A DNA stretch of 64,000 nt from an uncultured Planctomycetia bacterium (GCA_964455085.1 CAYVYJ010000004.1:22714-86713), one strand, 5' to 3'. Positions 1 through 15,918 are shown, counted from the stretch's first letter. Notes: generated from the letters alone by a model not told the origin. Numbers and translations are program-made.

Positions 1-604
1 TAATTGCTTTTTTATCCTTTAAGGTATCAAAATAACTTATCCTAAACTTTTCTACCCGGAAGTCAAAATCATCTAAGTGGGTAATTACCAGGATAAACAC
101 CAGAAGACTTAAGCTAGCCGGTATCAGATAAAGTAGCAGGGGGAAACTGGCAAAGAATCCACTCAAAAAAACACTGATTAAGTTTGAAAGATAGGAGAGA
201 GTGAAAAATATCCCAATATACTTTGCTTTATCTCTAGTTGGGATAACCTTACCTATAGTAATAAGCACCAGTGGTACGAAGCTACAACCAAAACAACCCA
301 TTAAAAATCTAAATAGGAAAGCTTCAGTGATACTCTTGGAAAGTGAAAAAAACAAAGCGGTCAGAAAGAATCCCAGAGTTGTAAAAAGAAGTATCTTTCT
401 TACCTTGACTATCCGGGTAAAAGGAGCCCAGATGAGAGCAAATACTCCGTAAGGAAGCATATAGAGCCAGGTGAGCGGTAAGGCCGCGTTCTTGGTTATC
501 CCAAAATAGATTGCGATTGACGGTATTAAAGCAGCCATGGCGGCAACACCGAAAGAAACTGCAAAAAACATCAGACAAAAGATATAGAAACTTAACTTAG
601 GCAT
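1..604 (-). CDS. MFS-type transporter, N-terminal ~200 aa; 3' end runs off the window edge
   Basis: Hand translation of the minus strand from the ATG at 604-602 gives MPKLSFYIFCLMFFAVSFGVAAMAALIPSIAIYFG...FTRIVKVRKILLF... with no stop through position 1. It has multiple hydrophobic TM segments and an MFS motif-A-like loop. GGAG RBS upstream; start overlaps stop of upstream gene (ATGCCTAA). Absent from the ORF track because no stop lies in the window. Confidence 0.6.
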   Translation of the reverse strand, partial: MPKLSFYIFCLMFFAVSFGVAAMAALIPSIAIYFGITKNAALPLTWLYMLPYGVFALIWAPFTRIVKVRKILLFTTLGFFLTALFFSLSKSITEAFLFRFLMGCFGCSFVPLVLITIGKVIPTRDKAKYIGIFFTLSYLSNLISVFLSGFFASFPLLLYLIPASLSLLVFILVITHLDDFDFRVEKFRISYFDTLKDKKAI

Positions 605-1034
605 TAATCTCCTTCTCAATTATCCCCTTAAATAGCTTTAAGTTATCTTGGGAGTGTTTATTTATTAACTCTTCAACTTGAGGATCAGTATATTTAGCCT
701 CTTTGTCCATCTTAAAATCCTGAATCCAGGTCATCTCAACACCACCGCTAACCTCACGATAAAGCCAGATAATCTTCATATACTCAAAAGGAAACATCGG
801 CTCCAACCGACAAGCATAAGCAAATTTATCTTGTTTAAACAACAGACGATAGGACTTCCAGCTATTCCCGTTCTTGTGGGTGAGTTGAAAAATAATCTTA
901 TTGTCTTGAGTCTCTAAAACATCGGAAGCGGTATATTCTTCAAATAATTCTTTCCAGCGCGAAATATCATTGCTAATATCAAAAATCAACTCAAAAGGTG
1001 CATTAATCACAATCGAGTTTGCTGTATGTGCCAT
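597..1034 (-). CDS. SRPBCC-superfamily protein (polyketide cyclase/dehydrase-like, Polyketide_cyc2-type)
   Basis: 145 aa, a size and composition typical of the TcmN-N-terminal/SnoaL-adjacent SRPBCC cyclase fold. It is embedded in the PKS operon and is translationally coupled to its neighbours. Confidence 0.55.
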   Translation of the reverse strand: MAHTANSIVINAPFELIFDISNDISRWKELFEEYTASDVLETQDNKIIFQLTHKNGNSWKSYRLLFKQDKFAYACRLEPMFPFEYMKIIWLYREVSGGVEMTWIQDFKMDKEAKYTDPQVEELINKHSQDNLKLFKGIIEKEINA

Positions 1035-1072
1035 TTTTACCTCCTTTGTCTACTGCGACGAGGGATATATTA

Positions 1073-1894
1073 TTAATAATCATCTACCACACCAACTACC
1101 CTTGCCCAGGCAGCACCGGTCTTCTTTATTCTTACTGGAAAACAAATAACCTTAAACCCCGAATCCGGCAACTTAGCCAAATTAGCTAATCTTTCAATAT
1201 GGATAAACTCTCGCTTTCTACCATGAAAATGAGCCGGCCAAAGATGTTTAGGATCTTTTGTTTTCAAAAAATCCTCGATCATAAATTTATAAGGTCGATC
1301 AATACCCATAGTATCTACTCCAAATATTTTTACCCCCCGATCAAGAAGGTAGTCAATCGCTGAAGGGTCTACTCCTGGATAATCAGAGAAATACTTGGGG
1401 CTTCCGAAAAGACGATCTGAGCCGGTATAAAAGAAAACAATATTCAAAGGCTTAAGTAAATAATCAATCTTTCCCAAAGCTTCTTCTATATCTTCACTTG
1501 TAATGACCTGATCAGCCCTTTTATTGCTAAAGTCAAGCTTGACTGCCTCTTGATAACACCACTCAAGCGGGATCTCATCAGCAGTCTTCGATGGTTTACC
1601 TTCAGACTTACTTCCGTAGTGAAAAGAATAGTCAAGATGAGTTCCACTATGAACTGAGGAATGCACTATCTCTAAAGACAGAAACTCCTGATCAGGTAAA
1701 TCTTCCTTCCTGACTATCCGTTGTCCCAGGAGATGCCTAATTTTACCCTTAAAAGTTTTACCCATCAAAACTCTATTCAATTTGGCAATTCCATCCTTAT
1801 GAGACACCCGTTCAATCTTTAAATCATGTACCTCAAAGGCTTTATCGTCAATCAATAAGCTTAAATCTACTATCTTCATGTCTCTATTGGTCAA
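1073..1894 (-). CDS. Cyclase-family protein (PF04199-like; kynurenine formamidase/putative polyketide cyclase fold)
   Basis: The HSGTHLDYSFH motif matches the HxGTHxDxPxH metal-binding signature of the 'putative cyclase' family. Confidence 0.7.
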   Translation of the reverse strand: MTNRDMKIVDLSLLIDDKAFEVHDLKIERVSHKDGIAKLNRVLMGKTFKGKIRHLLGQRIVRKEDLPDQEFLSLEIVHSSVHSGTHLDYSFHYGSKSEGKPSKTADEIPLEWCYQEAVKLDFSNKRADQVITSEDIEEALGKIDYLLKPLNIVFFYTGSDRLFGSPKYFSDYPGVDPSAIDYLLDRGVKIFGVDTMGIDRPYKFMIEDFLKTKDPKHLWPAHFHGRKREFIHIERLANLAKLPDSGFKVICFPVRIKKTGAAWARVVGVVDDY

Positions 1895-1897
1895 TAC

Positions 1898-2140
1898 TTA
1901 GCTTAAACCACCCTTTTTCTTATTAATCACCTCAACAATCTCAGCCAGGGTAGAGAATTTTGTAATCTCATTAGTTTCAATCTTAATACCAAAATGCTTA
2001 TTAAAAGAAACTACTAACTCTACCATCTCGGTTGAATCAACTCCGATAGAGTCATACAACTTTTGATCTTCTGCCAGCTCCTCTTTTCCGATATCCAATG
2101 CATCGCTGATAATATTAATAACCTCACTTTTTGTGTCCAT
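1898..2140 (-). CDS. Acyl carrier protein
   Basis: 80 aa, acidic, with the GVDSTEMVELV phosphopantetheine-attachment motif (DSxxxxEL). Confidence 0.85.
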   Translation of the reverse strand: MDTKSEVINIISDALDIGKEELAEDQKLYDSIGVDSTEMVELVVSFNKHFGIKIETNEITKFSTLAEIVEVINKKKGGLS

Positions 2141-2167
2141 AAAATTCCTCCTGGTTAAACTAATTTA

Positions 2168-3400
2168 TTATTTTTCTACTGCTAGCACAACATTTATTCC
2201 GCCCCGCCCTCTGGCAATAATCAGGGCTTTAGCGATTTCTTTCTCTTTAGGTTTATTGGGAGTATAATTTAAATCGCAATAAGGGTCTCTCATCTCCTGG
2301 TTAATCGTTGGCAGAACGATTGAATGTTTCATTGAAAAAAGTGTAACGATTAAATCTAAAGCGCTCTGGGCCCCGAGGAGATTTCCGTACATGCTCTTAG
2401 GAGCACTGAGAGCAATTTTGTTTATTGGCTTCCCAAATACATTTTTTAAAGCTGTTGTCTCAAGATAATCCCCCATTACAGTTGCTTCACCGTCTAAGCA
2501 GATATAATCTATGTCTTGCCTGTTCCAAGAAGCGTCTTTTAAGCATTCTTCTATTGCGTATTCTAACTCCTCTGATTTAGGACTGTACCTTGAATAGTGT
2601 TGCCCGTCGGAAGAGAAACCAATTCCTTTTATAAATCCATAAATCGGTACGCCTCTTTTTTTAGCTTTAGATTCTTTCTCCAAAATAACTATTCCTGAAC
2701 CTTCGCCTAAAACAAAGCCATCCCGGTTTAAATCATAAGGTTTATAAGCTTCTTTAGGGTTAAGATTATTCTTAGATAAATTACCGCAGGTATTTGCCGA
2801 CAATAAAGCATAGGGAGTAATCGGTGCCTCCATGCCCCCGGCTAAGACAAAATCTACTCGTTCTTGAGCGATTACTTTAGAACCATACCACAAACTCAAA
2901 GCTGAAGAAGCTTTATCGGCGACAATGGTCTTGCTATAACCTTTAAAGCCATAGTATATGGTAATTTGTCCCTGGGGCGCTGCCGGAAACCAAGCTGAAG
3001 CCATGTAGGGAGAAATTCCTTCTCTTCCTTCAATATACATATCACGCAATTCAGTCTCAGCAAAAAGCCAACCACCAATAGCATTCCCCATAAATACACC
3101 AACCCTATCCTTATCAATCTTTGCTAAATCCATCCCGGCATCAGAGATAGCCTGTTCACTGGCAACTAAAGCCATGTGAGAGAATACATCTATCTTTTTA
3201 ATCAGTCTTCCAGAAAGGTGGCTGTAGTGGTCAAGTTCACGGACCTGGCCGGCAATCCGGGAAGGATATAGGGAAGCATTGAATCTTTTAATCTCGCTGA
3301 TAAAAGAATCACATTTTTTAAGATTAGCCCAAAAAGTTTCCTTCTTTAACCCACAAGGCGAAACTACGCCGATACCGGTTATTGCAACTCTCTGGCTCAT
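2168..3400 (-). CDS. Ketosynthase beta / chain-length-factor-like subunit (KS-beta, no active-site Cys)
   Basis: Thiolase-fold KS homolog. The position that aligns with the KS-alpha TVSTGCTAGTDSL motif reads TIVADKASSALSL, so the catalytic Cys is absent. It sits immediately downstream of KS-alpha and upstream of the ACP, as in type II PKS minimal cassettes. Confidence 0.8.
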   Translation of the reverse strand: MSQRVAITGIGVVSPCGLKKETFWANLKKCDSFISEIKRFNASLYPSRIAGQVRELDHYSHLSGRLIKKIDVFSHMALVASEQAISDAGMDLAKIDKDRVGVFMGNAIGGWLFAETELRDMYIEGREGISPYMASAWFPAAPQGQITIYYGFKGYSKTIVADKASSALSLWYGSKVIAQERVDFVLAGGMEAPITPYALLSANTCGNLSKNNLNPKEAYKPYDLNRDGFVLGEGSGIVILEKESKAKKRGVPIYGFIKGIGFSSDGQHYSRYSPKSEELEYAIEECLKDASWNRQDIDYICLDGEATVMGDYLETTALKNVFGKPINKIALSAPKSMYGNLLGAQSALDLIVTLFSMKHSIVLPTINQEMRDPYCDLNYTPNKPKEKEIAKALIIARGRGGINVVLAVEK

Positions 3401-3403
3401 TAA

Positions 3404-4651
3404 TTACCTCCACCTCTTAAATACAATCGAAGAATGGATTCCCGAAAATCCACTACTGGTCTTAAGTATATACTCTGGCATTAATTTCCTCTTTTTATTG
3501 GGAATATAATCTAAATCGCACTTAGGATCAAGCTCTTCCTGATTAATCGTCGGCGGAAGATATCCTTTTTCAAAAATCATACAACATAATACGCTCTCTA
3601 CAGCATTGGCTGCAGCTAAAGGGTGCCCAATCATCGATTTAATCGAACTTATGGGAACTTTATAAGCAAAATCACCTAAAACCTTTTTGTAAGCATCAGT
3701 CTCAAAAACATCATTCTGCCTGGTAGATGAACCATGAGCATTTATATAAGAGATATCTTCATTCTTTATGCCGGCATTTGCTATTGCTTCTCGCATACAG
3801 CGGGCCATTGGTTCACCGTCTGAGGGCAAATCAGTCATATGGTAAGCATTGCAGCTTGTCCCATAACCAAGAATCTCAGTATAGATATGAGCACCACGTC
3901 GCCTAGCATGTTCTAACTCCTCCAGAATTAAAATACCGGCAGCCTCGCTGATAACAAAACCATTCCGCTTATTATCAAAGGGACGACTTGCTTTATGAGG
4001 CTGGTCATTATTCTTAGCCAAAACACTTACCACATCAAAAGCCCCGAAGGTAATCGGGGTAACCGGAGCTTCACTGGCTCCGGCAATAATTAAATCTTGC
4101 CTTCCTTCCTGAATAAGTTCATAAGCAAACCCTAAGGAATCAGTTCCAGCAGTACAGCCAGTGGAAACTGTACAATTGATTCCCTTGGTCCCATGGATTG
4201 CCCCTATCTCGGCACTGGGAGTATTAAACATAGCAGCATCATAAAGATAAGGTCGCCCTTTGCGGGGATCAATAGGGTTCTTACCCCAATCAGTAACTAA
4301 TAAAAACTCTTCTTCCATGAACCGGGTTCCGCAAATTGCATTAGCTAAAACTACGCCACATCTGTGGCGGTCCAACCTATTAAAATCTAATTTTGCATCT
4401 TCCACTGCACCAGCGGCCGCAGCAATTCCAAACTGAACATATCTATCCATGCGTTTATGCTCAACTATGCCAAACTTTAAGGGATCGAAGCCTAAATCCT
4501 GGGAAGCAATTTTCGAAAGAAACAAACTCACATCAAAATTCTCAACCTTCTCGACACAAGGCTTACCGGCAATTAGATTATTGTAAAACTCATTCCTATC
4601 TTCTCCGGCTGCAGAGATAACTCCGATTCCGGTAACTACTACTCTTTTCAA
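3404..4651 (-). CDS. Type II PKS ketosynthase alpha
   Basis: VSTGCTAGTD active-site Cys motif. NAHGSSTRQND matches the type II PKS KS-alpha HGSGTRQND signature and differs from FabF HGTSTPAGD. Also has the SMIGHPLAAA His motif and N-terminal VVVTGIGV. Confidence 0.9.
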   Translation of the reverse strand: MKRVVVTGIGVISAAGEDRNEFYNNLIAGKPCVEKVENFDVSLFLSKIASQDLGFDPLKFGIVEHKRMDRYVQFGIAAAAGAVEDAKLDFNRLDRHRCGVVLANAICGTRFMEEEFLLVTDWGKNPIDPRKGRPYLYDAAMFNTPSAEIGAIHGTKGINCTVSTGCTAGTDSLGFAYELIQEGRQDLIIAGASEAPVTPITFGAFDVVSVLAKNNDQPHKASRPFDNKRNGFVISEAAGILILEELEHARRRGAHIYTEILGYGTSCNAYHMTDLPSDGEPMARCMREAIANAGIKNEDISYINAHGSSTRQNDVFETDAYKKVLGDFAYKVPISSIKSMIGHPLAAANAVESVLCCMIFEKGYLPPTINQEELDPKCDLDYIPNKKRKLMPEYILKTSSGFSGIHSSIVFKRWR

Positions 4652-4680
4652 TTTCTTCCTCCTTAAAAATACAAACTTAT

Positions 4681-5262
4681 CTATTCTTTTCTGCTCACTT
4701 TAAATATAATATTCCCGCCATCAGGACAGGTTACTGTATCTATAGAATTCTGATTATCCATAAAGGGGAATTTTGCACCAAAATTAAGCGCAAAAAGGGC
4801 TGGAAAAGCCGTGTGCCAGGCAGCTCCACAGAATCCAGGAATACACTTAAGGCCTTCCATGTCCCACTTATCACCAACCTTATAGTTATAAAAACACTTG
4901 CCCTTAGCTTTAACAACCTCGATGACCATCTGTTTTGGTTTCGGACCCTTATAGCTAGGATCTTTAGGAATATTATCAATCTCACCTTGCTTATTAAATA
5001 TCTCGGCCTTAAATTCTAATTTTCCACCATCAGGACAAGTCACCAATAAAGACCGTTGGTTATCCATAAAAGGGAATTTAGCATTGAAACTTAAGGCATA
5101 AATTACTGGAAAGAGAGCATGAGCTAAGCCTAAACAAAAGTGTTTAGGTGGGTGGGTAAAATCCTCCAAAATAAGTTCTGTGCCGATTTTATAACCATGA
5201 TAACAGTGGCCGGAAACTGCATTTACAGTAAGTTTTAGTTTAGGAAAAGGAGTATCAACCAT
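4681..5262 (-). CDS. Hypothetical protein made of two tandem ~90-aa Cys/His-rich repeats (possibly TIGR04076-like)
   Basis: Internal duplication: C-x2-H-x-Y-x-x-G ... C-x-G ... A-x-x-P ... FNAKFPFMDNQ ... V-T-CPDGG ... F-K appears twice (residues ~19-100 and ~113-190). Confidence 0.5.
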   Translation of the reverse strand: MVDTPFPKLKLTVNAVSGHCYHGYKIGTELILEDFTHPPKHFCLGLAHALFPVIYALSFNAKFPFMDNQRSLLVTCPDGGKLEFKAEIFNKQGEIDNIPKDPSYKGPKPKQMVIEVVKAKGKCFYNYKVGDKWDMEGLKCIPGFCGAAWHTAFPALFALNFGAKFPFMDNQNSIDTVTCPDGGNIIFKVSRKE

Positions 5263-5274
5263 TTTACACCATCC

Positions 5275-6285
5275 TTATTGTTGATTCTTGAGACCGGCCA
5301 TTTCTAATAACAAGTCTTGTTTACTTATGAACGAGCCGGTCTCCTCAACCTTATGCACCAACTCAACGATTCTTTTATTTATCGGAGCCTTAAGATTGTT
5401 CTCATCAGCTAAACTGACAATTTCTCCGTTGATATAGTCAATTTCTGATCGTTTGTTATTCCTTATACTTTGGAGTATTGAACCATAGAGCGGCTCTTTG
5501 CTTAATGAGTTTATAACCTGGGAAAAAATATTAGCGGCCTGATCTCTCGGCATTGAGACCAATCCTTCAATTCTGGTTTTAGGATAAGTGGGTAAATCAG
5601 CTAGTTTTATACCACTGGTTTTGATAATATTAAATGCCTCTTGATTTAATTCTATTGCTAATTTTGCAAAATTTAAGTCGCTAAATGCCTCCTGCATCGA
5701 TAAACCTAAGACAGCCGGGATACAATTATTTAGATTGATCAACAACTTAAGGTATTTAGCTCCTTTAATTTGATTGGAGATTACAGTATTAAATGCAGAA
5801 CTTAGATAATCGCTTACTGCCTCGATATTAGATACTTCTTGATTAAAGATATTGCCTAATATTAAATTGCCCTCAAAATTATGAACTATCCGGTTCGGCC
5901 GATAAAATGTTGCCCCAAACATTACAATTCCGGTGATGATCTTATTTTGGGGGAAATATTCTTTAAGAATATAATCGGCCCTTACCCCATTTTGGGTGCT
6001 AACAACCGTCGCCTCTTTTAAATACTTAAAATTATCCTTTATCAATTTCTCTAAATCATTGACCTTGCTAGAGAGAATAACTAAATCTACCCTTTCCTGG
6101 AGACTGGTTTGGGCCTTAACTTTAAAGTTATGAGAGCCTCGGATGCCATCGATCAACAAACCTTCTTTTTCCAGAGTTTTTTTCTGGTAATCCTTAACTA
6201 TGCCGATGACCTCAGAAGACTTTTTAGAAAGATACCCTAAGAATAATCCACCAATTGCCCCGCAACCTAAAACTGCTATTTTCAT
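5275..6285 (-). CDS. 2-dehydropantoate 2-reductase (ApbA/PanE) family NAD(P)H oxidoreductase
   Basis: N-terminal MKIAVLGCGAIGG Rossmann motif, ~336 aa, typical length and architecture of ketopantoate-reductase-family proteins. Confidence 0.65.
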   Translation of the reverse strand: MKIAVLGCGAIGGLFLGYLSKKSSEVIGIVKDYQKKTLEKEGLLIDGIRGSHNFKVKAQTSLQERVDLVILSSKVNDLEKLIKDNFKYLKEATVVSTQNGVRADYILKEYFPQNKIITGIVMFGATFYRPNRIVHNFEGNLILGNIFNQEVSNIEAVSDYLSSAFNTVISNQIKGAKYLKLLINLNNCIPAVLGLSMQEAFSDLNFAKLAIELNQEAFNIIKTSGIKLADLPTYPKTRIEGLVSMPRDQAANIFSQVINSLSKEPLYGSILQSIRNNKRSEIDYINGEIVSLADENNLKAPINKRIVELVHKVEETGSFISKQDLLLEMAGLKNQQ

Positions 6286-6305
6286 TATAAAATATCCTTG
6301 TTGAC

Positions 6306-6572
6306 TTATTCTCCTTTACCAATGTAAGATCGATAATCGATATTTAGCTGATTAAGTAATCTTTGGAGCATCTCTTTAAAGGCCGGAGGAACCTCTTGAA
6401 AAAAAGCAACAATTAGATCTTTATCGACAACTTCGCTAGATCCGCGGCCCTTAGCCAACTCCTCAGCTTTTTCTTTAATAAGTCGCTCGGCAATTGTTCG
6501 GTGAAATTGAGGTAGATTACTTACTATCCTATTGAACTTTTCTTTTGTCTCATCATTCCAGATAATTCCCAT
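6306..6572 (-). CDS. Small protein with a PCP_red-like domain (protochlorophyllide reductase B C-terminal-like)
   Basis: 88 aa; IWNDETKEKFNRIVSNLPQFHRTIAERLIKEKAEELAKGRG loosely matches the W..E....iP.F.R....E..A...G pattern of standalone PCP_red domains. This is a recollection-based call. Confidence 0.35.
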   Translation of the reverse strand: MGIIWNDETKEKFNRIVSNLPQFHRTIAERLIKEKAEELAKGRGSSEVVDKDLIVAFFQEVPPAFKEMLQRLLNQLNIDYRSYIGKGE

Positions 6573-6590
6573 ACCTTAGGACTCCTTTAG

Positions 6591-7325
6591 TTATAACTTA
6601 TCAACAACACTAAAAGCTAAATCTGCCATCTTCATCTCAGCTTCAAAAAATCTATAGTCAGCAAATCCTAATCTACCGGTAATAAGATTATCTGATACCG
6701 CTAAGATAGCTGCCACTTTCTTATGATAAAGATTTGCTACAGTCACAAAAGGAGAAGTTACCATATCAACCGCAATTGCCCCTTTTTCAATATAAGGGTT
6801 GACTATTTCTTTGGTCTCCCTGAATAAAGCATCGGTAGTCCATACCCCTCCTTGATGAAGTGGCGCAGAGGCTTTGAAAACCTCCTCTATTTTAGAAGTT
6901 AATAGCTTATCTACTTTAGATTCAAAATTATCATCAACATAATAGCGGCTTGCGCCATCGCCTCTGATAATATCAGTAGCTAAGATGTAGTCCCCGACAT
7001 TAATATCCTCACGCAGAGCACCACAGGAGCCGAGCCGAATAAGACTATTAACCCCACCAACACACAAGAACTCAGTAACAAAAGCTGAATCCGGAGCGTA
7101 GAATCCGCCGTTACCCACGGTTATTTTTTTACCCTTATACAAGCCACTCCAGAAAGTATAACCAAGAAAGGTGAAGTTCTTGACACAATTCTCTAAACGT
7201 TCCAAACACATCTTTGCTCTGTGCTGCTGGCCGCTGACTAAAGCGATTTCACCAAAATCACCATCTTTAAACTGCAAAGAATAAAGAAGCTCTTTGGGGC
7301 TTAAATGAAGATCTCTCTGCATCAT
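6591..7325 (-). CDS. PNP/UDP-family nucleoside phosphorylase or nucleosidase-like protein
   Basis: LGSCGAL motif and flanking residues resemble DeoD/MTAN-type phosphorylase family 1. 244 aa. Confidence 0.6.
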   Translation of the reverse strand: MMQRDLHLSPKELLYSLQFKDGDFGEIALVSGQQHRAKMCLERLENCVKNFTFLGYTFWSGLYKGKKITVGNGGFYAPDSAFVTEFLCVGGVNSLIRLGSCGALREDINVGDYILATDIIRGDGASRYYVDDNFESKVDKLLTSKIEEVFKASAPLHQGGVWTTDALFRETKEIVNPYIEKGAIAVDMVTSPFVTVANLYHKKVAAILAVSDNLITGRLGFADYRFFEAEMKMADLAFSVVDKL

Positions 7326-7327
7326 GA

Positions 7328-8839
7328 TTAAGCTCCTCCTTTAACTAATTTTTGCTTATCAATTTTGCCGGTTCTATTCTTAGGTAAATCTTCTACAAAT
7401 TCAAAGTGGTGGGGAACTTTAAAGTGGGCTAGGCGTTCTTTTAAGAAGTCCTTTATTTCGTTTGTATCTAAGATTGTTTGCTGTTGGGAGACGATAAATG
7501 CTTTGGGTACCTCACCTCGTAAATTATCAGTTACACCAATAACCGCAACCTCTTTTACTTTGGGATGTTCTTGTATTTTCTCTTCCACCTCAGCCGAAAA
7601 CACTATCTCCCCGGCCACCTTAATCATATCTTTTTTCCTTCCTACTATATAATACAAACCCTCTTGGTCCTGTTTAACGATATCGCCGGTCTTAAGCCAT
7701 CCGTCTTCTCTCAACACCTCTTTAGTTAGGGCCGGTTCTTTAAAATATCCGCGCATTATCGCCTCACCCCTAACCCATAACTCTCCTCCCTCTCCCCTGC
7801 CGACACTTTCTCCAGCCTCATTAACAACCTTAGCTTCCATCTTCGAGTCAAAACCACCGATACTGGATATTTTGGCTTCATCAGACGGTGAAAAAGTATT
7901 GGGGCCTGTTGTTTCAGTCATTCCCCAACCATTTAAAACTACTGCCTTAGAACATAGTTTATGAAATCGCGCCAAAAGCTGCGGCGATGAAGGAGCACCA
8001 AAGACACCCGCAAATCGTAGCGAAGAAAGGTCAAACTTCTCATACCCTTTTAAGCAAAGAATCGCCACATACATTGCCGGAACAATGCAGAAGATAGTAA
8101 CTTTATGCCGCTGGATATTCCTTAAAAACTCTAAAGGATGAAATCTTTCCATCAGGATAAGGGAAGAAGAGAAATAAATCATCAGGAGTATATAACCTAA
8201 TCCTCCGATATGGGAAAAGGGCACGCCGCCGCATAAAAATATATCATCCCCAGATACAGCTAAGAAACGGTCGATAGTTTTAGGAGGATTATCTAAGTGT
8301 CTAAATTCTAAACTTACTCCTTTAGGGTGGCCGGTAGAGCCGGAAGTATAAAATATCGCACAAAGGTTACCCGGGTTATGTTCGATACTAATGTGATCGG
8401 GACTGGCTTGGCTTAAGACTGAATCCCAGGTTGGAAAACTCTGTAGATTCTCTGCAGCGACGATTATTTCCTTTAAACTTTTACAGCTACTCTTAATCTT
8501 TAGCAGGTCGAATCCCTTTTTGGGTTGAATCACTAAAACTTTAGTCTGGCTGTGATTGATGAAATTAATAATTTCACTCTCGGTTAACATGAAATCTAAA
8601 GGGACTATTGCTGCTTGAGCACTAAATACACCTAAGAGAGTAAATACAGCCTCAAGGCCATTAGGAAGAAACATGGCTACTTTATCTTCTGGCCTAATAC
8701 CTAAACTAAAAAGATAATTAGCCAACTTAAAAGAAGTACTTTTCAGCTCACGGAAGGTAACTATCCGATCTTGCAATACTACTGCCTGCTTCTGAGGATA
8801 ATTCTTAGCTTGCTGGTTAAGTAATTCCCGAATATTCAT
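7328..8839 (-). CDS. AMP-dependent synthetase/ligase (acyl-CoA or acyl-ACP ligase; probable starter-unit activation)
   Basis: YTSGSTGHPKGV AMP-binding core motif, 503 aa, first gene of the PKS operon. Confidence 0.85.
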   Translation of the reverse strand: MNIRELLNQQAKNYPQKQAVVLQDRIVTFRELKSTSFKLANYLFSLGIRPEDKVAMFLPNGLEAVFTLLGVFSAQAAIVPLDFMLTESEIINFINHSQTKVLVIQPKKGFDLLKIKSSCKSLKEIIVAAENLQSFPTWDSVLSQASPDHISIEHNPGNLCAIFYTSGSTGHPKGVSLEFRHLDNPPKTIDRFLAVSGDDIFLCGGVPFSHIGGLGYILLMIYFSSSLILMERFHPLEFLRNIQRHKVTIFCIVPAMYVAILCLKGYEKFDLSSLRFAGVFGAPSSPQLLARFHKLCSKAVVLNGWGMTETTGPNTFSPSDEAKISSIGGFDSKMEAKVVNEAGESVGRGEGGELWVRGEAIMRGYFKEPALTKEVLREDGWLKTGDIVKQDQEGLYYIVGRKKDMIKVAGEIVFSAEVEEKIQEHPKVKEVAVIGVTDNLRGEVPKAFIVSQQQTILDTNEIKDFLKERLAHFKVPHHFEFVEDLPKNRTGKIDKQKLVKGGA

Positions 8840-8850
8840 CTTTGAAAAAT

Positions 8851-8880
8851 AGTAAAATTTTAATAGTAAAATTTTACTAT
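8851..8880. promoter_or_regulatory. Perfect 18-bp palindrome ATAGTAAAATTTTACTAT preceded by a direct half-site AGTAAAATTTTA, 12-40 bp upstream of the operon's first start codon; candidate operator
   Basis: Read directly from the sequence: the reverse complement of 8863-8880 equals itself, and the half-site is repeated at 8851-8862. Confidence 0.35.
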
Positions 8881-8915
8881 CAATGGCGATTTAGTCAAGT
8901 TTTTTAAGCCAAATT

Positions 8916-10064
8916 TTAATTGCTCCGCTTAAGGAGACTTAAGCACTCCAGGTGGGGGGTGTGAGGGAAAAAGTCAAAAGGCTCAATAAAATCAAGGCTA
9001 TATTGGCCTAAAAACCCTTCTAAGTCCACAAAGAAGGCCTCGGGATTACAGGATGAATAGATGATATTTTTAGGCTCCAGCCTTAAAATAGCCCTTATTA
9101 TCTTAGGGTTGAGCCCGCAACGCGGAGGGTTTACAACTAAAAAATCAGTATTCTTATAAAATGTGCCCTGGGTGTTGAGGAACTTTCTGGAGTCAGCAGC
9201 AAAAAAAGAAATATTATTTACCTTGTTAATCTTAGCATTCTGCCAAGCCATATCAACAATTTCTTCTTCCCTTTCTACGCCCCAAACAAATTTTGCACTC
9301 TTGGCCAGGAATAATCCGATTGAGCCTACTCCGCAAAAAAGATCCAATACCCGCTGTCGGGGAGATAAATTTGCATACTTTCTGATCTTCTTGTAAAAAT
9401 CTACTATCATCCGGGGATTTACTTGAAAAAAAGTGTCAATGCTGATTCGAAAGGTTAGTTTATCTAACCGTTCTTCAATGAAAGGTTCACCAAAAAGAAG
9501 CTTCTTTTTCTCAAAAACTACCGCATCAGAGTGTGAATCGCTAGTAATCTGATAAATAGACTTAAGCTTAGATTTTAACTTTAGAGAATTAAGCAGCGCT
9601 ACCAACTCCTTAGAATCCAAAACCTCACTACTGCTGGTGACTATTCCGACCATACTCTGGTTAGTAAATTTCGCTTCGCGGACAATCAAGTAGCGCAAAA
9701 ATCCCTGATGGGTGTATTTATCATAGGCTGAGTATCCCCGTTCTTTGATGAACTGTTTAATTGTTTTTAATATTTGATTTGAGTCCGGCGAAAAAATTAA
9801 ACACTCTTCTATATCGACCACCTTTCTTTTCTCTTTCCGGCTGTAAAGACCGCAAACTATACCCTCCTGATCAGCAAATGTGAATTCCATCTTGTTCCGA
9901 TAATACTCTTGTTGAGAGTGGTTGATTGGTTTTATCAAAGTATCAATATTATAAGCAGTAGCTAACTCCTTTACTCTATCTTGTTTGGCTCTCAGCTGCT
10001 TCTTGTAAGGAATATCCTGAAAGCGACACCCTCCACAATCTGAGAAGTGCTTACAAATCTTCAT
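8916..10064 (-). CDS. RumA/RlmD-family RNA (uracil-5)-methyltransferase with Fe-S cluster
   Basis: N-terminal CKHFSDCGGC Cys cluster, DLFCGVGSIGLFLA SAM-binding motif, C-terminal PHTPHLE. Confidence 0.8.
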   Translation of the reverse strand: MKICKHFSDCGGCRFQDIPYKKQLRAKQDRVKELATAYNIDTLIKPINHSQQEYYRNKMEFTFADQEGIVCGLYSRKEKRKVVDIEECLIFSPDSNQILKTIKQFIKERGYSAYDKYTHQGFLRYLIVREAKFTNQSMVGIVTSSSEVLDSKELVALLNSLKLKSKLKSIYQITSDSHSDAVVFEKKKLLFGEPFIEERLDKLTFRISIDTFFQVNPRMIVDFYKKIRKYANLSPRQRVLDLFCGVGSIGLFLAKSAKFVWGVEREEEIVDMAWQNAKINKVNNISFFAADSRKFLNTQGTFYKNTDFLVVNPPRCGLNPKIIRAILRLEPKNIIYSSCNPEAFFVDLEGFLGQYSLDFIEPFDFFPHTPHLECLSLLKRSN

Positions 10065-10555
10065 TGGATAATTAAATCTTTTAATCTTTTTCGCCGGGTA
10101 ACACCAGAGGAACCCAGCGAATAGCCTAAGGCTAAAACTGCTGCTAACTCTAAATTTTCGGAGGTTGCTAAACGCTTATGGACCTTTTCTTTTTGATTTA
10201 GAATCTCACCCAACCAACAAGCCCCCAGACCTTTGGTGTGGATAAAAAGAAGCATGTTCTCAACACAAGCGCCTATTGCCATTAAATCCTTGTCGCGATT
10301 ATAAGAGTCCTCTTTATCAAAAAATACCACTATAAGTTTATCGGCACTCTTTACTACGACAGAATACTTTGTGTACTCAGCTAAAGAATCTTTGGCCTCT
10401 TTCTCCAAAACCATAAACTTCCAAGGTTGATTATTTAACCCTGAAGGTGCCCAACGTCCAGCTTCTAATATCTCTAAGATTATCTTCTCAGAAACTGCTT
10501 TCTTCTTAAACTTTCTTACTGACCTTCTTGCCTTTAAAACTTTTAAAATATCCAT
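10061..10555 (-). CDS. Nitroreductase-family protein
   Basis: RRSVRKF...PSGLNNQPWKF motif of the NADH oxidase/nitroreductase fold. Confidence 0.75.
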   Translation of the reverse strand: MDILKVLKARRSVRKFKKKAVSEKIILEILEAGRWAPSGLNNQPWKFMVLEKEAKDSLAEYTKYSVVVKSADKLIVVFFDKEDSYNRDKDLMAIGACVENMLLFIHTKGLGACWLGEILNQKEKVHKRLATSENLELAAVLALGYSLGSSGVTRRKRLKDLIIQ

Positions 10556-10618
10556 GACTGCTCAAGCCAGCGGCTTAATAACCCATTTACTCATATTGTA
10601 AAGATATAAATAGATAGA

Positions 10619-11527
10619 TTAGGCCCACCAATAACCAAGCTCTTTTAATATACGTGGCTTATCCTGCCAATCTTCTAAAACCTTAACCCAAATATCTAAA
10701 AAGACTTTCTTATTATAAATATTCTCAATCTCTGGACGCGAGCGGCTTCCTACGCCTTTTAGTACTTCTCCGGCTTTACCAATAACAATTCGCTTTTGAG
10801 AATTTCTCTTAACATAGATATTGGCTTTTATCGAAACTATCTTTTTCTTATTATTTATCTCCTCAACCTCAACTGCTATAGAGTGAGGCAATTCTCTCTT
10901 AAGTTGTATGAATAACTTCTCCCTTATGATATCAGCAACCCGAAATTTAGGCGGAAAATCAGTTAAAGAATTAGTATCATAATAAGGATGGGACTCTGGC
11001 AAATTCTCTAAAATAGAATCTCTTAATTTATCAACACCTTTTCCGGTCTTGGCTGATAAAGGTATGTAATAGATTAAAGGGTTTCTCTTACTCCTTGCCC
11101 TCTCAGCCCATAAATCAATATAAGCATTGAAAAACTTTCGCCCTAAGTCAGTCTTATTTAAAACCATAATTGTTTTAACTTTTTGCCCGGTAATAATCCG
11201 CATCAGTTCTTGCTCTTCCTTGCCGGGACGCCGGGATAGATCAACAACATAAATGATTAAATCACAACCTTCTAAGGCTCTTTTAGCAACTGTATTTAAG
11301 TGAGCAGCTAACTTATCTTCAAAAGAATGAACCCCCGGCGTATCAACAAAGACTATTTGGGCTTTTTCTAGATTCAAGATTCCTTTTATCTGATGACGGG
11401 TTGTCTGAGGGATAGGTGAAATAATACTTATTTTATTGGCTACCAAAGCATTAAGCAAGGTAGACTTACCGACATTGGGCCGGCCTAAAATAGTTACGAA
11501 TCCTGCTCTAAATTTTGTTTTTTTCAT
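10619..11527 (-). CDS. era: GTPase Era
   Basis: GFVTILGRPNVGKSTLLN G1 motif, DTPG, NKTD, C-terminal KH domain. Confidence 0.9.
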   Translation of the reverse strand: MKKTKFRAGFVTILGRPNVGKSTLLNALVANKISIISPIPQTTRHQIKGILNLEKAQIVFVDTPGVHSFEDKLAAHLNTVAKRALEGCDLIIYVVDLSRRPGKEEQELMRIITGQKVKTIMVLNKTDLGRKFFNAYIDLWAERARSKRNPLIYYIPLSAKTGKGVDKLRDSILENLPESHPYYDTNSLTDFPPKFRVADIIREKLFIQLKRELPHSIAVEVEEINNKKKIVSIKANIYVKRNSQKRIVIGKAGEVLKGVGSRSRPEIENIYNKKVFLDIWVKVLEDWQDKPRILKELGYWWA

Positions 11528-11544: not shown

Positions 11545-13542
11545 CTATCCCTCCTGGTAACGCTTTTTTAAAGATAAATCCAAAAATTCGCCTCTTAGAG
11601 GGTTATAACCATAATAAGCAATTAAAAAATAGGCGGTAGAGGCTAAAGATCCGGTTCTGTTTCCTCTAGGGGTTCGCCAACCATGGCCGGTATCAATAGA
11701 AGGACTGGAGGCATAAGGAAGACAGGGGTCTCCCCGACCAACAGGCGAAGGAGAAACTATCAACATCTTCTGTAATTCATTGAAATAAAAAAGTGCCTTT
11801 TTAAAATATTCTCCAGACTTATTAGTGTTTTTATCTTGAAAATAATCAGCCATGATCTCAAAGGCTAAAATCATCTGGGAGGTCCATTCTCCTGACACTA
11901 CACCACCTCGAGGAGCGTTCTTGGCTTTAGCAAAATCAAACCCTTCTAGCTCTACTTCGCCTCTCTTGCGCTTAAACTTTACTCCCACCTTACAATGTTT
12001 AACAGCAAACTTTAATATTGTCTCGGGATTCATTTTTAGGGTAAAAAGCTCCTCGGGGCCAAAAGCAGTTATTGACCAAGTGTAGGTATCAGTAGCAATA
12101 GTAGAATCACCTTTGCCTCTTTTTACCGGGGGACCGTAGCGAGTGTAGGAGTAGCGACAGACCCAGTTCTTTATCTTCTGGGCCGCATTTAAATACTTTT
12201 TCTCGCCACTTAACTGATAGAAGAGGTTAAAAAAACTAAAGACATCCAGATTGTGTTCTGTAGAATACCAAGACTCATCAGGACCACCCTTTATTCCGCC
12301 TTCGGCGTCCATCAACTCCAGGAGAAGATTACTTACTTCTCTTGCAATCGGTAAATACTTTTCATTACCAGTTTCCTTAGTATAACAGAGAGCAGCTAAG
12401 CCAAGCCAGGCATTCGGCCCACTATGGAGTACATACTCAAAGACGTCACCTTGAGTAAAGTAGGCATTATAAATACCCTGGCCTTCATTGATTTTCTTAA
12501 GGTAAAAATCTAGTATTTTCTCAGCTCTTTGTTTATCCCCGGAAATCAGAAATACAATCGTGGCTAAAGCTTGATCATAGGTAAAACAGATTCGGTCTAA
12601 ACTATTATCCCCTTCATAGCTAAGTATTAACCCCCTTCGCAAATCCTGACGGTTCTTTATCCAATTATACATACCCCCGATTAATTCTTGTGAAGACTTC
12701 AGCTCTTCCTGCTGAAGGCTTTCTACTTCCTCTTGGATCTTTAACGCAGCGGCTTTGTTCTCTTTTTCTTTTGCCTTTAAAAAATCGTTCTCACGCCTTA
12801 GGCTGGCTAACTCTAATCTCAGCAACGAAAGCTTCTCTTTAAGCTTCGCAGCTTCTTCCAAGTTAGCTCTATCAGCGTTTTGACTTTGAAGTAACTCATC
12901 GTACTGGCTTTGCCAAAGAATGACCTCTTTGCTCAACGAATCAATAGACTTAGTTAAATTTAATTGCCTCTCTTCAAAAAATATCTTGCTGTTAGCTTCG
13001 TTCTCTAAAATATCTTCAAGGGCTGACTTCTTCTCCAAGATACTCACATAATTACTTACTAACCGTCTATTTTTCCTCACTAAGGAGCTGGTTCGCCAGA
13101 ATAAAGAAAAAGAGAAGAATAAAAGAATGGTTATAACTCCGGTCACAACTAACGGTGTGAATTTCTTAACCAGAGCATATTTGAATAAAAATTTTGCTTT
13201 CTGATTGTCGTCTTCCATAAATCTTAAGCCTACTGTATAACGATTAAAATTCTTTAATCTTCGCTGTCTTAGCCAACTTATCTGGGCCTTTAAACAAACA
13301 GCTTGGGATTTAAAAGGTAAGTCGATGCACAGGGAGAGTTGAGCTCCCGGGTAACTTAGACGGTCGGCAAAACCCCACCAAAGGTCATTAATCAAAAGGC
13401 GGATACCGCCTTTTCCGATATCACGGGTAAATCCTTGCAGCCAAGGCGTCATCTTCTCCCCCTTAGCATCAAGGATGAAAAACTCAACCGGCAAAACAGT
13501 AGAAGTCCTTATATATCTTCGCTTATCCTTCCCTCTTTTCAT
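11545..13542 (-). CDS. PilZ domain - TM - coiled coil - glycoside-hydrolase-like (alpha/alpha-barrel-like) fusion protein
   Basis: N-terminal RRYIR ... DIGKGGIRL matches PilZ RxxxR / DxSxGG. A hydrophobic segment and a Q/E/L-rich coiled coil follow. The C-terminal ~380 aa carry Trp/Tyr-rich glycosidase-like motifs (GGPDESWYSTEHNLD). Confidence 0.5.
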   Translation of the reverse strand: MKRGKDKRRYIRTSTVLPVEFFILDAKGEKMTPWLQGFTRDIGKGGIRLLINDLWWGFADRLSYPGAQLSLCIDLPFKSQAVCLKAQISWLRQRRLKNFNRYTVGLRFMEDDNQKAKFLFKYALVKKFTPLVVTGVITILLFFSFSLFWRTSSLVRKNRRLVSNYVSILEKKSALEDILENEANSKIFFEERQLNLTKSIDSLSKEVILWQSQYDELLQSQNADRANLEEAAKLKEKLSLLRLELASLRRENDFLKAKEKENKAAALKIQEEVESLQQEELKSSQELIGGMYNWIKNRQDLRRGLILSYEGDNSLDRICFTYDQALATIVFLISGDKQRAEKILDFYLKKINEGQGIYNAYFTQGDVFEYVLHSGPNAWLGLAALCYTKETGNEKYLPIAREVSNLLLELMDAEGGIKGGPDESWYSTEHNLDVFSFFNLFYQLSGEKKYLNAAQKIKNWVCRYSYTRYGPPVKRGKGDSTIATDTYTWSITAFGPEELFTLKMNPETILKFAVKHCKVGVKFKRKRGEVELEGFDFAKAKNAPRGGVVSGEWTSQMILAFEIMADYFQDKNTNKSGEYFKKALFYFNELQKMLIVSPSPVGRGDPCLPYASSPSIDTGHGWRTPRGNRTGSLASTAYFLIAYYGYNPLRGEFLDLSLKKRYQEG

Positions 13543-13548
13543 TTATTT

Positions 13549-15918
13549 TTATTTAGCTGCGGAGCGCTTAGACGATACTTCTAAAATAATTTCTTCCCGT
13601 AAAATATAGAGTGCTTCTTTGAAATGGGCTTTAAATTCCTCATACTCATTCCTTTCTACGAATCTCTTCTTAACCCTAAATAACTGCTGAAAATTAATCT
13701 GGCCGGACTCTTGTTCATACGATAGGTCTAATTTAAACCAGGGATTTTCCAAACTGGTAGAAGAGGGTAGATATTGAACTCTTAGATTCTCCGGTAAGCT
13801 TATCTTTATTTTAGCTCCCAGATTATACACTCCTTCAAAATCCAGAGGATAATCTCTTCCTTCTTTGCTGATTAAAGCATGGTCAAGGTCTATTTGATCT
13901 AGAATCGGCACAATTCTTAAATTTCCTGCTGGGTTAAGGAATTTCTCGGCGGCAAACTTATAGTTAAGTGTCGGGGTGGTATCAAAATTATCGGCATCTT
14001 TTATCTCATAATCAATAAGCTGGGAAAGAGATGATATCTCCGTCATCTTTTTCTGGATCTCTTCTTTGATTGTGGCCGGATGAGTATGTTTTAGGTACCA
14101 GCGATAAGAGGCAGCATAGAATCCGCGGGTTTCCACCTTCCGGTTAATCATTGCGTTTTCTTCACTATCAATTTCTATATTCATTGTATAAATAATACCA
14201 TTATCTTCCTTGTCTCCAATCTTAGTTATCCGCCAGGTATCATCCAAAAATACCAAAACTTCTCTATCCTGGTCTCCCAATGGAATATTTTTGAATACGA
14301 TCGTCTCCGCTGTGGGGTCCATAAAAATTAACTCACCGTCTATTTCTACAGCCGCAATCGCATGGTTAAAAATAACCGTGGGAAAATCTTTATCTATAGG
14401 GTAAGCACTCCGAGTAGGGATAAGTACCGGGTAAGCTCCCAAACCAGCACTTCTTAGCATCGCTATTAAGAGAATTGCTTGATCTTTACAGTCGCCGTAT
14501 CGATTAATAAATACATCGTTGGCATAGTGAGGTTCATAGCCACTATCACCATATTCTATAGCTACATAACGGATATTCTTAGCTACGAATTCATGTATTT
14601 TCTTAGCTTTATCCTGACTATCAGAAATATCTTTAATGAGTTCTTTAGTGAAATCTTCTATTTCCGGGCTTAGTTGAACTTTATCCTGATAAAGAGATCT
14701 CCACCATTCATAGATTTCATCCCAGGAAGAAAAACTGGAGATTGCCACTGCTGGATTGATATAGGAGGTAGTTGGCATACTATACTCGGGAATAATCGGG
14801 GCTATCTGGCTGAAATTCCAGGTATATATCTTCTTTGCTTGCTCTTGCCTTAATCCAGGTTCAAGAACAATACTCTCGGCATAGTCTTGATTAAAAAAAT
14901 TAAACTTAACTTCCCGGCCTTCAGGAATAATCAGGGTAAAGTCAGCTTTAAACACCGGGTATTTTTCCCTTAAACGATAGATCTGGCTAAAATCATCTTG
15001 GTTGATTAACTTCGAGGAATAAACCTTTATCTTATACTCAATGAATGACCCTACCTCTACTGAGGGCATCGAAACAATAAATACCCGGGAATTACTATAA
15101 AGAGGGAAATTCTGATAAAGCCCTATATTACGGATACTTTCACCGCCGGCATAGATAACTTTGCCCTCTTTGGTAATCGTGCGGGCAAATTCCAATTCTA
15201 CCCGCTCATAGGTAGAATCATAGCCTACTTGAACCTCAGCCAATTCTTTGCCACGCTCTTTTAACACCTTCTCCAGGACGTGTATGGTGGAAAGTGATGT
15301 ATTCTCCGGTGTAATTTCCACACTTTCCTCAACCAACAAATATACCGCGGCATCATCTTTTAACTGGCCAATATAGTCACCAGCCTCCTCGGAGATTGCA
15401 ACTATTTCAGCAGGGATACTATCTTCTACTTTTGCTTTAATAAATTCTATTCTCTCTTGGGCTCTACTCCTAAAAGAACTACCTACTTTGGCATATATTT
15501 CAAGAGCTTTAGGAAACAAATTCTTTTCTTCTAAAACTTGACCATAGAGATAGAGGCATTCATCATCCTGAGGTGTCGACTCCAGTTGTTCAAAGATTTC
15601 AATAGCATAATCGTAGTCTTTTGCTTTAGCCAAAGCTTTGGCCAGAATTATTTTTGCACTTTCAGTATCGATACCATCAAGAAGCTCTTTTACCTGCAGA
15701 TAATCTTTAAACCCGTAGTAAGCTTTAGCTAGATTTAACTTTAACTCTAAATTATCGGGTTTAGCCTTTATTAATCCTTGATAATGTTTAACTAACTTCT
15801 GGTATCGTCCTTTTAGCTCTTCTAAAGAATCAGCATCCCCCTTAAGGCTTGGTGAACACCCAAGAAGATTAAGCAGGACAATTATAGCAATTAGTTTAGG
15901 CAATAATCTTAAGTACAT
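13549..15918 (-). CDS. Lipoprotein with TPR repeats, DUF3857-like region and a transglutaminase-like Cys protease domain
   Basis: Lipobox LLGCS, TPR-like N-terminal region, and GDCKDQAILLIAMLRSAG transglutaminase core motif. Confidence 0.7.
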   Translation of the reverse strand: MYLRLLPKLIAIIVLLNLLGCSPSLKGDADSLEELKGRYQKLVKHYQGLIKAKPDNLELKLNLAKAYYGFKDYLQVKELLDGIDTESAKIILAKALAKAKDYDYAIEIFEQLESTPQDDECLYLYGQVLEEKNLFPKALEIYAKVGSSFRSRAQERIEFIKAKVEDSIPAEIVAISEEAGDYIGQLKDDAAVYLLVEESVEITPENTSLSTIHVLEKVLKERGKELAEVQVGYDSTYERVELEFARTITKEGKVIYAGGESIRNIGLYQNFPLYSNSRVFIVSMPSVEVGSFIEYKIKVYSSKLINQDDFSQIYRLREKYPVFKADFTLIIPEGREVKFNFFNQDYAESIVLEPGLRQEQAKKIYTWNFSQIAPIIPEYSMPTTSYINPAVAISSFSSWDEIYEWWRSLYQDKVQLSPEIEDFTKELIKDISDSQDKAKKIHEFVAKNIRYVAIEYGDSGYEPHYANDVFINRYGDCKDQAILLIAMLRSAGLGAYPVLIPTRSAYPIDKDFPTVIFNHAIAAVEIDGELIFMDPTAETIVFKNIPLGDQDREVLVFLDDTWRITKIGDKEDNGIIYTMNIEIDSEENAMINRKVETRGFYAASYRWYLKHTHPATIKEEIQKKMTEISSLSQLIDYEIKDADNFDTTPTLNYKFAAEKFLNPAGNLRIVPILDQIDLDHALISKEGRDYPLDFEGVYNLGAKIKISLPENLRVQYLPSSTSLENPWFKLDLSYEQESGQINFQQLFRVKKRFVERNEYEEFKAHFKEALYILREEIILEVSSKRSAAK

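Follow-up and report, generated by a model that had tools for sequence, protein, structure and literature searches.

Ancestral-type synthases and the operon studied here

Actinomycetes are the usual makers of type II polyketides, which serve them as accessory antibiotics or pigments. For type II polyketide synthases (PKSs) outside that group an 'ancestral' layout has been described, for example in the anaerobes that carry the clostrubin and dendrubin clusters: ketosynthase (KS), chain-length factor (CLF), acyl carrier protein (ACP), TcmN-type enzyme and OxyN-type enzyme (PMC7693217). The subject of this paper is an operon of 11 genes in a 64,000-nucleotide stretch of DNA deposited as that of an uncultured Planctomycetia bacterium (GCA_964455085.1, CAYVYJ010000004.1:22714-86713; hereafter the window). 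All 11 genes lie on the minus strand and run from 8839 to 1. The operon is probably an aromatic type II PKS of the ancestral type, belonging, as its sequence relationships indicate, to anaerobic bacteria of the Candidatus Omnitrophota.

The clostrubin (clr), wexrubicin and dendrubin (den) clusters and the actinomycete resistomycin (rem) cluster have the same core as this operon: a ketosynthase alpha (KSα), an inactive ketosynthase beta (KSβ), an ACP, a mono-domain TcmN-like enzyme and a cyclase assigned to the PF04199/OxyN type. The ancestral-type clusters likewise have no C-9 ketoreductase and no oxygenase, and their hosts are anaerobic. The Omnitrophota operon is set apart from them by gene order, since its cyclase precedes its aromatase. 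Three further genes are obligatory in it, encoding a DUF2621 protein, an ApbA/PanE reductase (ApbA) and a tandem TIGR04076 protein; none of these, and no PNP-like (PNP_UDP_1) gene, was found in the nearest non-Omnitrophota clusters inspected. Those outside clusters have the character of accessory biosynthetic gene clusters, with regulators, ABC pumps, a phosphopantetheinyl transferase (PPTase) and hydrolases, whereas the Omnitrophota operon is phylum-wide, syntenic and placed among housekeeping genes. The nearest outside KSα proteins come from Clostridium, Laceyella and metagenome-assembled genomes (MAGs) of Bacillota, at 43-46% identity; identity to outside sequences is generally about 45-51%. 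The nearest non-Omnitrophota KSα proteins are annotated as 'minimal PKS KS alpha' or are clustered with cyclases, hydrolases, methyltransferases and transporters.

Three other systems are useful for comparison. AntD, from the Photorhabdus AQ-256 pair AntD/AntE (6SMO), is the best solved match of the KSα (364 bits over 411 residues) and shares with it the motif HGSST(A/R)QND and an insertion relative to FabF. AntE was not among the PDB matches of the KSβ at E <= 1e-20. The ant cluster also encodes a ketoreductase, a PPTase, a chain-shortening hydrolase and the CoA-ligase homologue AntG, and is not known to contain ApbA, TIGR04076, DUF2621 or PNP genes. The actinorhodin (act) KS/CLF pair (1TQY) contains the CLF with which the KSβ forms a clade; the second catalytic His is Asn in the KSβ and Arg in act CLF. 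The operon differs from the actinorhodin and tetracenomycin systems in its low-GC, anaerobic host outside the Actinomycetota. FabF and FabB of fatty-acid synthesis have the same thiolase fold and length, and FabF hidden Markov models score well against both KSα and KSβ. They are distinguished by the catalytically dead KSβ, by the cyclases that stand in place of FabG, FabZ and FabI, and by a tree split found in 200 of 200 bootstraps.

The synthase core and its cyclases

Open reading frames were assigned to families by Pfam and NCBIfam profile matches. The same families were recovered as had been listed in an earlier interpretation of this DNA, made without database searches and referred to here as the sequence-only reading. 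The KSα (3404-4651, minus strand; 415 residues) has the catalytic triad Cys166/His306/His343, aligned with those of act KS, AntD and FabF. The type II signature HGSSTRQND, recognized in that reading, lies at residues 306-314. A five-residue insertion relative to FabF is common to the KSα, AntD and act KS. Scores against other solved structures are 348 bits for act KS, at most 333 for FabF and 204 for the ishigamide KS.

The KSβ, or CLF (2168-3400, minus strand; 410 residues), carries Lys163, Asp303 and Asn340 at the Cys/His/His positions, so that the catalytic Cys is missing, as had been claimed. The protein shares with act CLF the GGW(L)F (GGxxF) and AWF motifs and the His-to-Asp change. The position of the active-site Gln of act CLF is occupied by Lys in the window and in the other loci of its architecture (type A, below), and by Arg in the second Omnitrophota architecture (type B) and in relatives from Myxococcota, Bacillota and soil. 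The Gln is a trait of canonical actinomycete CLFs and not of the whole family. Between KSβ and the cyclases lies the ACP gene (1898-2140, minus strand; 80 residues; PF00550, 2e-12), whose product has its phosphopantetheine-attachment residue, Ser36, in a GVDS motif.

Neighbour-joining trees with 200 bootstraps were built from references in PDB alignments, the KS pairs of related loci and the nearest 50%-identity cluster representatives out of 1.84 billion proteins. The labelled KSα proteins, AntD and act KS included, separate from FabF and from KSβ in 200 of 200 replicates; this test is limited to labelled sequences, as the exact 35-member KSα clade has 3% bootstrap support, with unlabelled representatives shifting in and out. 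All KSβ proteins together with act CLF form one clade that excludes FabF, again in 200 of 200. The FabF part of the phylogenetic check proposed with the sequence-only reading was therefore decided in favour of a PKS pair.

Two cyclases complete the core. The last conserved gene encodes an SRPBCC mono-domain aromatase/cyclase of TcmN/WhiE/ZhuI type (597-1034, minus strand; 145 residues), which matches TcmN ARO/CYC at 1.3e-27 and WhiE-type proteins and ZhuI at about 1e-25. It keeps 11 of the 12 residues that we take to line the TcmN pocket (Trp28, Tyr35, Trp65, Ser67, Arg69, Arg82, Met91, Trp95, Trp108, Gln110 and Asn136); the twelfth, Trp63, falls in a deletion. The gene before it (1073-1894, minus strand) encodes a PF04199 cyclase (1e-27) with HSGTHLD at residues 82-88, the HxGTHxD metal motif of this family. 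On the full contig it is called as a protein of 268 residues. Its true start is likely to be the ATG at 1879, which would widen the gap from the ACP gene from 3 to 18 nt. Its similarity to solved structures is weak and confined to isatin hydrolase. PF04199 genes adjoin KS/CLF pairs elsewhere too: in a genome of Myxococcota, in a MAG of Bacillota and in a contig from soil. OxyN (OxyN/DpsY-type cyclase) is here assumed to belong to PF04199, so that the likeness is one of family membership and not of direct alignment. The view that both cyclases are pathway rather than housekeeping enzymes is upheld by the TcmN-type match of about 1e-27 and by the occurrence of PF04199 beside KS/CLF pairs in unrelated phyla.

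No short-chain dehydrogenase/reductase (SDR), dehydratase, di-domain aromatase or oxygenase was found among the operon genes by Pfam and NCBIfam matches. The absence of SDR, di-domain aromatase and oxygenase had been noted earlier, and it stands. The oddness then attached to the missing ketoreductase and di-domain aromatase does not, because the TcmN-type enzyme acts on unreduced chains and its mono-domain form is normal for these. Taken together, the residues, motifs and trees support a genuine type II aromatic PKS with a predicted active-type KSα and a predicted catalytically inactive KSβ.

Host and distribution

The KSα has relatives in more than 120 database clusters at 76-91% identity, and every named one is a Candidatus Omnitrophota (Omnitrophica) MAG. 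A scan of one genome per GTDB species gave 57 loci, 54 of them with an Omnitrophota-type operon. These 54 are labelled Omnitrophota (41), 'uncultured Planctomycetia' (10), 'bacterium' (2) and 'Methanosarcinales archaeon' (1). The 41 include Ca. Susulua stagnicola and three complete chromosomes of 1.28-1.82 Mb. A fermentative metabolism with Rnf, Sud, HppA and FeFe hydrogenase has been reported for Ca. Susulua. The three outlying loci belong to a Vitiosangium genome, a Bacillota MAG and a UBP18 MAG (KSα identity 51, 44 and 56%, respectively). A second scan, of metagenome contigs against a TIGR04076 alignment and intended for other phyla, gave 350 relatives; the best 80 of these were examined and comprised close Omnitrophota-type loci alone, among them those that revealed the type B architecture.

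On this sequence evidence the host is a member of the anaerobic Candidatus Omnitrophota, and the claim of a non-actinomycete host is confirmed by both the database clusters and the species scan. Two supporting details of that claim hold as well: the GC content of the window is low (0.37-0.43), and the window contains GatA, GatB and the V-type ATPase subunits I, D, B and A.

Some loci bear labels or bin assignments that deserve comment. The ten labelled 'uncultured Planctomycetia' show synteny identical to that of the Omnitrophota loci. The 'Methanosarcinales archaeon' contig (JAIWAR010000044.1, 12.8 kb; locus L005) holds a complete type A operon whose KSα is 91% identical to that of the window, and shares an upstream trmA-like gene with Omnitrophota loci. 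Its sequence makes it almost certain that this contig belongs to Omnitrophota and was mis-binned. The same may hold for 'archaeal' type II PKS hits in print, among them the Methanoperedenaceae CLFs (PMC10132072). In the MAG QZM4_1.bins.127, a type A operon occurs on each of two separate contigs (L051 and L054), and the KSα proteins encoded there show 71 and 72% identity to that of the window; the two operons are either paralogous copies or the result of strain mixing in the bin.

Two architectures of a conserved operon

Presence of each gene was counted by tblastn, locus by locus, over about 130 loci, and only where the locus has room for it. KSα (88/88), KSβ (76/76), ACP (74/74) and the PF04199 cyclase (71/71) are invariably present; ApbA (115 of 116 loci), DUF2621 (107 of 109) and the aromatase (65 of 67) nearly so. 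The block DUF2621–ApbA–tandem TIGR04076–KSα–KSβ–ACP–cyclase–aromatase is collinear in nearly all of the loci. The ligase (49/80) and the PNP-like gene (50/91) are gained or lost jointly.

Type A, the architecture of the window, reads ligase, PNP-like, DUF2621, ApbA, TIGR04076x2, KSα, KSβ, ACP, cyclase and aromatase, followed in the closest relatives by a transporter of the MFS family. Type B has neither ligase nor PNP-like gene, and its KSα is 61-66% identical to that of the window. Between KSβ and ACP it carries a gene for a 496-residue B12-binding radical SAM enzyme (9188-10678 in locus L094; about 30 other metagenome loci), whose top-scoring family is that of BchE, the anaerobic oxidative cyclase that acts on Mg-protoporphyrin (201 bits, below the cut-off). 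This BchE-like protein is a candidate for the oxygen-independent tailoring of an aromatic polyketide. In L094 a PadR gene and the acetyl-CoA carboxylase subunit gene accA lie just upstream. Type B likewise belongs to Omnitrophota: more than 120 clusters match at 84% identity or more, and all the named ones are from this phylum.

Smaller variations occur. A few type A loci (L018 at 12372-13487; L017, L027 and L030) have an extra gene between KSβ and ACP for a 371-residue esterase of the PHB-depolymerase family (NCBIfam 1.5e-40, just below the cut-off), and this enzyme may release the product by hydrolysis. In L058 and L063, too, the KS/CLF pairs have hydrolase genes beside them. A complete 1.275-Mb genome has TIGR04076x2, KSα, KSβ, ACP, cyclase, aromatase and MFS only, with DNA-repair genes upstream. 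In the UBP18 MAG the order is ApbA, TIGR04076x2, KSα and KSβ.

The Omnitrophota KSα proteins of both types are monophyletic against the nearest outside sequences, as are the KSβ proteins, in 200 of 200 neighbour-joining replicates; types A and B are each monophyletic at the same value. In many loci the genes upstream of the operon are era, one of the nitroreductase family and one for an RlmD/TrmA-like methyltransferase. Where KSα and the essential GTPase Era could both be compared with the window, in 17 loci, KSα identity equalled or exceeded that of Era in all 17, with means of 83 and 70% (for example 84 against 53, 82 against 57 and 92 against 90). The operon matches the remaining window in GC content. 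Acquisition as an island by horizontal transfer is unlikely, given the lack of a GC break, the preserved era/trmA-like synteny and the monophyly of the clade. The pattern of conservation is not that of a sporadic, horizontally moving antibiotic cluster.

Accessory genes

The tandem TIGR04076 gene (4681-5262, minus strand; 193 residues) lies directly upstream of KSα in every case. Its two repeats are 47.5% identical to each other, and each has three conserved Cys and a His (GxC, FCxxxxH and TCPDGG). It is the accessory gene most tightly tied to the synthase, because the reduced variants, the 1.275-Mb genome and the UBP18 MAG, still keep both repeats. A tblastn search of plasmids gave no match to it.

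ApbA (5275-6285, minus strand; 336 residues; ApbA and ApbA_C domains) scores 168.8 bits with TIGR00745, against a cut-off of 141. It has the Rossmann motif GCGAIG, and the E. coli PanE residues Asn98, Lys176, Ser244 and Glu256 are invariant in the alignment. Because it passes the cut-off of the PanE subfamily and keeps the catalytic residues, it is expected to be active as an NAD(P)H-dependent keto reductase, and may act on a 2-keto acid or a polyketide carbonyl. The DUF2621/PCP_red-like protein (6306-6572, minus strand; 88 residues; PF11084, 2e-8, above the cut-off) is small and helical. It also matches PF08369 and the BchZ C-terminus, below the cut-off, a domain found at the C-terminus of protochlorophyllide and chlorophyllide reductases. 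An AF2 single-sequence model (pLDDT 72) had no Foldseek match with E < 1.

The remaining two genes are those confined to type A. The AMP-binding acyl-CoA/AMP-forming ligase (7328-8839, minus strand; 503 residues; PF00501, 2e-79, and PF13193) is the first gene of the operon. It lies below all NCBIfam equivalog cut-offs, and the solved structures most similar to it are those of 4-coumarate and feruloyl-CoA ligases (about 215 bits). PDB neighbours were uninformative as a guide to its substrate. The PNP_UDP_1 protein (6591-7325, minus strand; 244 residues; PF01048, 2e-33) is closest to the hexameric MTAP/DeoD group, that is, Sulfolobus MTAP and DeoD-type PNP, with NCBIfam equivalog scores far below the cut-offs. 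It keeps the equivalents of E. coli PNP Arg24, Arg87, Ser90 and Asp204; Arg43, which we take to be the inter-subunit phosphate Arg, is replaced by Leu, and Glu181, presumably ribose-binding, by Val. Because these two residues are lost, the protein is probably a member of the superfamily and not a standard nucleoside phosphorylase. Both genes are missing from the whole sister lineage and are therefore inessential to the core chemistry. The unusual starter unit suggested by the sequence-only reading is for the same reason not borne out.

Layout, boundaries and expression signals

The distances between successive genes, from ligase to MFS, are 2, 18, 20, 12, 29, 3, 27, 3, 38 and -8 nt. The tight coupling described earlier is thus seen in gaps of 2-38 nt and one 8-nt overlap. 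A Shine-Dalgarno sequence resembling AGGAGG precedes nearly all starts in the operon, and the genes for KSα, KSβ, ACP, aromatase and cyclase could all be transcribed together. The MFS reading frame (1-604, minus strand) overlaps the aromatase stop by these 8 nt, and the window end cuts the gene after its N-terminal 201 residues. On the full contig the transporter has 374 residues, with PF07690, and the next gene encodes a TPR protein; the count is accordingly 11 genes and not the twelve first claimed. The MFS gene stands outside the conserved block and is seen only in the closest relatives and a few other loci.

A 76-nt gap separates the ligase from an upstream rRNA/tRNA methyltransferase-like (RlmD/TrmA-like) gene. 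It contains a candidate sigma-70-like promoter, TTGACT-16-TAAAAT (8871-8898, minus strand; 10 of 12 matches). Promoter-like sites across the region show no excess (24, against 29.3 expected from shuffles), and the evidence for this site as the operon promoter is weak.

Proposed mechanism

The following steps are suggested for an ancestral-type aromatic PKS. (i) The ACP would be activated by a PPTase encoded elsewhere and loaded with malonate by the malonyl transferase of the cell's fatty-acid synthesis. (ii) KSα and KSβ would condense malonyl units iteratively into an unreduced poly-beta-keto chain. (iii) The TcmN-like enzyme would fold and aromatize the first ring. (iv) The PF04199 cyclase would close a later ring. 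(v) ApbA, TIGR04076 and DUF2621 would most likely tailor the chain or rings by reduction or by redox- or metal-dependent steps independent of oxygen. (vi) The product would be a polyphenol resembling an anthrone, an anthraquinone or clostrubin; its synthesis would need no oxygenases, in keeping with an anaerobic host, and it would be exported by the MFS protein where one is present. In type A the ligase and PNP-like pair may be a lineage-specific add-on that supplies a non-acetate starter or acylates at a late stage. In type B the BchE-like B12 radical SAM enzyme would take the place of this pair. It is speculative, but the KSβ without Gln fits external priming.

Several points weigh against an aromatic PKS of this kind. 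The canonical CLF active-site Gln is missing from the KSβ, which in pairwise comparison scores higher with FabF (275 bits) than with act CLF (199 bits). Its gatekeeper positions are W/A/L, against F/T/F in act CLF, and at such divergence chain length cannot be read from them. The trees are distance-based, with few labelled references and without aryl-polyene KS/CLF sequences. No PPTase, malonyl transferase or thioesterase was found within the operon. An ApbA reductase beside a TcmN-type aromatase is an unusual pairing, the TcmN type normally handling unreduced chains. Fold searches on the accessory proteins returned nothing decisive, and the roles of ApbA, TIGR04076, DUF2621, the PNP-like protein and the ligase are inferred only.

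Alternative explanations

Three other explanations have been considered. The synthase might be primed by the ligase with an aromatic or unusual acid and add only a few malonates, giving a small bicyclic product in the style of aurachins, quinolones or alkyl-resorcinols. In favour of this, the operon begins with the ligase gene, closely coupled to the genes that follow; the best solved relatives of the ligase are aryl-acid ligases (4-coumarate, feruloyl and anthranilate), the KSβ has lost the Gln that is thought to decarboxylate malonyl-ACP in self-priming, and the CLF gatekeepers are bulky. Yet type B and the complete 1.275-Mb genome have no ligase or PNP-like gene while the synthase and both cyclases are unchanged, and two ring cyclases, one of TcmN type, point to a longer chain. 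The CoA-ligase homologue of the Photorhabdus ant cluster reportedly acts in ACP activation and not in priming. Such a product is unlikely. A highly reducing or polyene system (aryl polyene, ishigamide or ladderane-like), with reduction by fatty-acid reductases or by ApbA as a possible ketoreductase, must be rated as very improbable. It would share the KSα/KSβ/ACP trio common to polyene-type systems, antiSMASH has reported 'ladderane' clusters in Omnitrophota MAGs, and the type B radical SAM enzyme is weakly similar to a ladderane-lipid family (68.6 bits). The KSα, however, scores 364 and 348 bits with aromatic KSα proteins against 204 with the ishigamide KS; the operon has no dehydratase or SDR; and the TcmN-type aromatase, with its pocket residues kept, and the PF04199 cyclase accompany the synthase in 65 of 67 and 71 of 71 loci.

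The last explanation is a divergent FabF pair of primary fatty-acid synthesis with cyclase-like genes as unrelated neighbours. NCBIfam FabF models are the top scorers for both KS proteins, and the KSα passes the PRK07314 subfamily cut-off (431 against 387 bits). FabF is also the best structural score of the KSβ, and housekeeping genes surround the operon. Against this, the KSβ has none of the three catalytic residues, both KS proteins fall in PKS clades in 200 of 200 replicates, and a ten-gene order that includes aromatase and cyclase is invariant. In addition, profile matches revealed no FabG, FabZ, FabI, FabD or FabH in the operon. This explanation is effectively refuted, and an ancestral-type aromatic type II PKS is the preferred interpretation.

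The rest of the window

The remaining window is a housekeeping region, with GatA/B, RpoD, DnaG, PheST, ThrRS, V-type ATPase and PyrD/F. The minus strand carries nearly all genes of the window, and GC skew stays negative along its whole length (cumulative -4.45). An island of plus-strand genes (31511-36203) breaks this pattern; it encodes a FIST sensor, a histidine kinase, a response-regulator/GGDEF protein and a metallo-beta-lactamase-fold protein. A gene at 58287-60164 (minus strand) encodes a 625-residue fusion of chorismate-binding and class IV aminotransferase domains, apparently PabB-PabC of p-aminobenzoate synthesis. Folate synthesis is its probable purpose; the distance to the PKS is 50 kb, and no link between the two was found. 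Two large genes at 11545-15918 (minus strand), between an aminotransferase gene (16214-17362) and era (10619-11527), encode a 665-residue protein and a 789-residue DUF3857/transglutaminase-core protein. Many Omnitrophota loci have both of these genes upstream of era as well, with 52-88% identity.

Previous knowledge and biological meaning

A catalogue published in 2023 includes Candidatus Omnitrophica, without further description, among 14 phyla with KS-CLF hits. With so many phyla catalogued, type II PKSs outside the Actinobacteria are no longer very rare, as the sequence-only reading had held them to be. No description of the operon was found in the literature on Omnitrophota. The genome-centred papers on the phylum that were consulted make no mention of polyketide or ketosynthase, and the strings 'Omnitrophica' and 'Methanoperedenaceae' are absent from the supplements of McBride 2023. 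TIGR04076 appears in one paper, solely as an entry in a gene-annotation table. The ancestral-type type II PKS as a kind, and the presence of KS-CLF in the phylum, are already known. New, as far as was found, are the constancy of the three accessory genes, the CLF with Lys or Arg, the existence of two architectures, and a phylum-wide, vertically inherited and strongly constrained operon.

Monophyly, the era/trmA-like synteny, conservation above that of Era and retention in genomes of 1.3-1.8 Mb together make it probable that the product has a lineage-wide physiological or ecological role rather than that of a sporadic antibiotic. A more specific proposal is put forward tentatively. The polyketide may be a core, vertically inherited Omnitrophota metabolite, either a redox-active quinone-like carrier or pigment in fermenters without isoprenoid quinones, or a factor acting on host or prey. 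Its tailoring might fall to a new and strictly anaerobic set of proteins, with TIGR04076, alongside DUF2621 and ApbA, as an obligatory and hitherto unrecognized component of a type II PKS; in type B the radical SAM enzyme would replace oxygenases.

The operon resembles a core trait of an entire phylum, one of uncultured, ultra-small anaerobes of which many are inferred to depend on hosts. This raises the question of why streamlined cells need an aromatic polyketide, and of how such a molecule is tailored without oxygen. The uncharacterized TIGR04076 and DUF2621 families gain a first genomic context and a candidate function. The deep-branching KS/CLF pairs, with Lys or Arg in place of Gln, provide material on the origin of type II PKSs from FabF.

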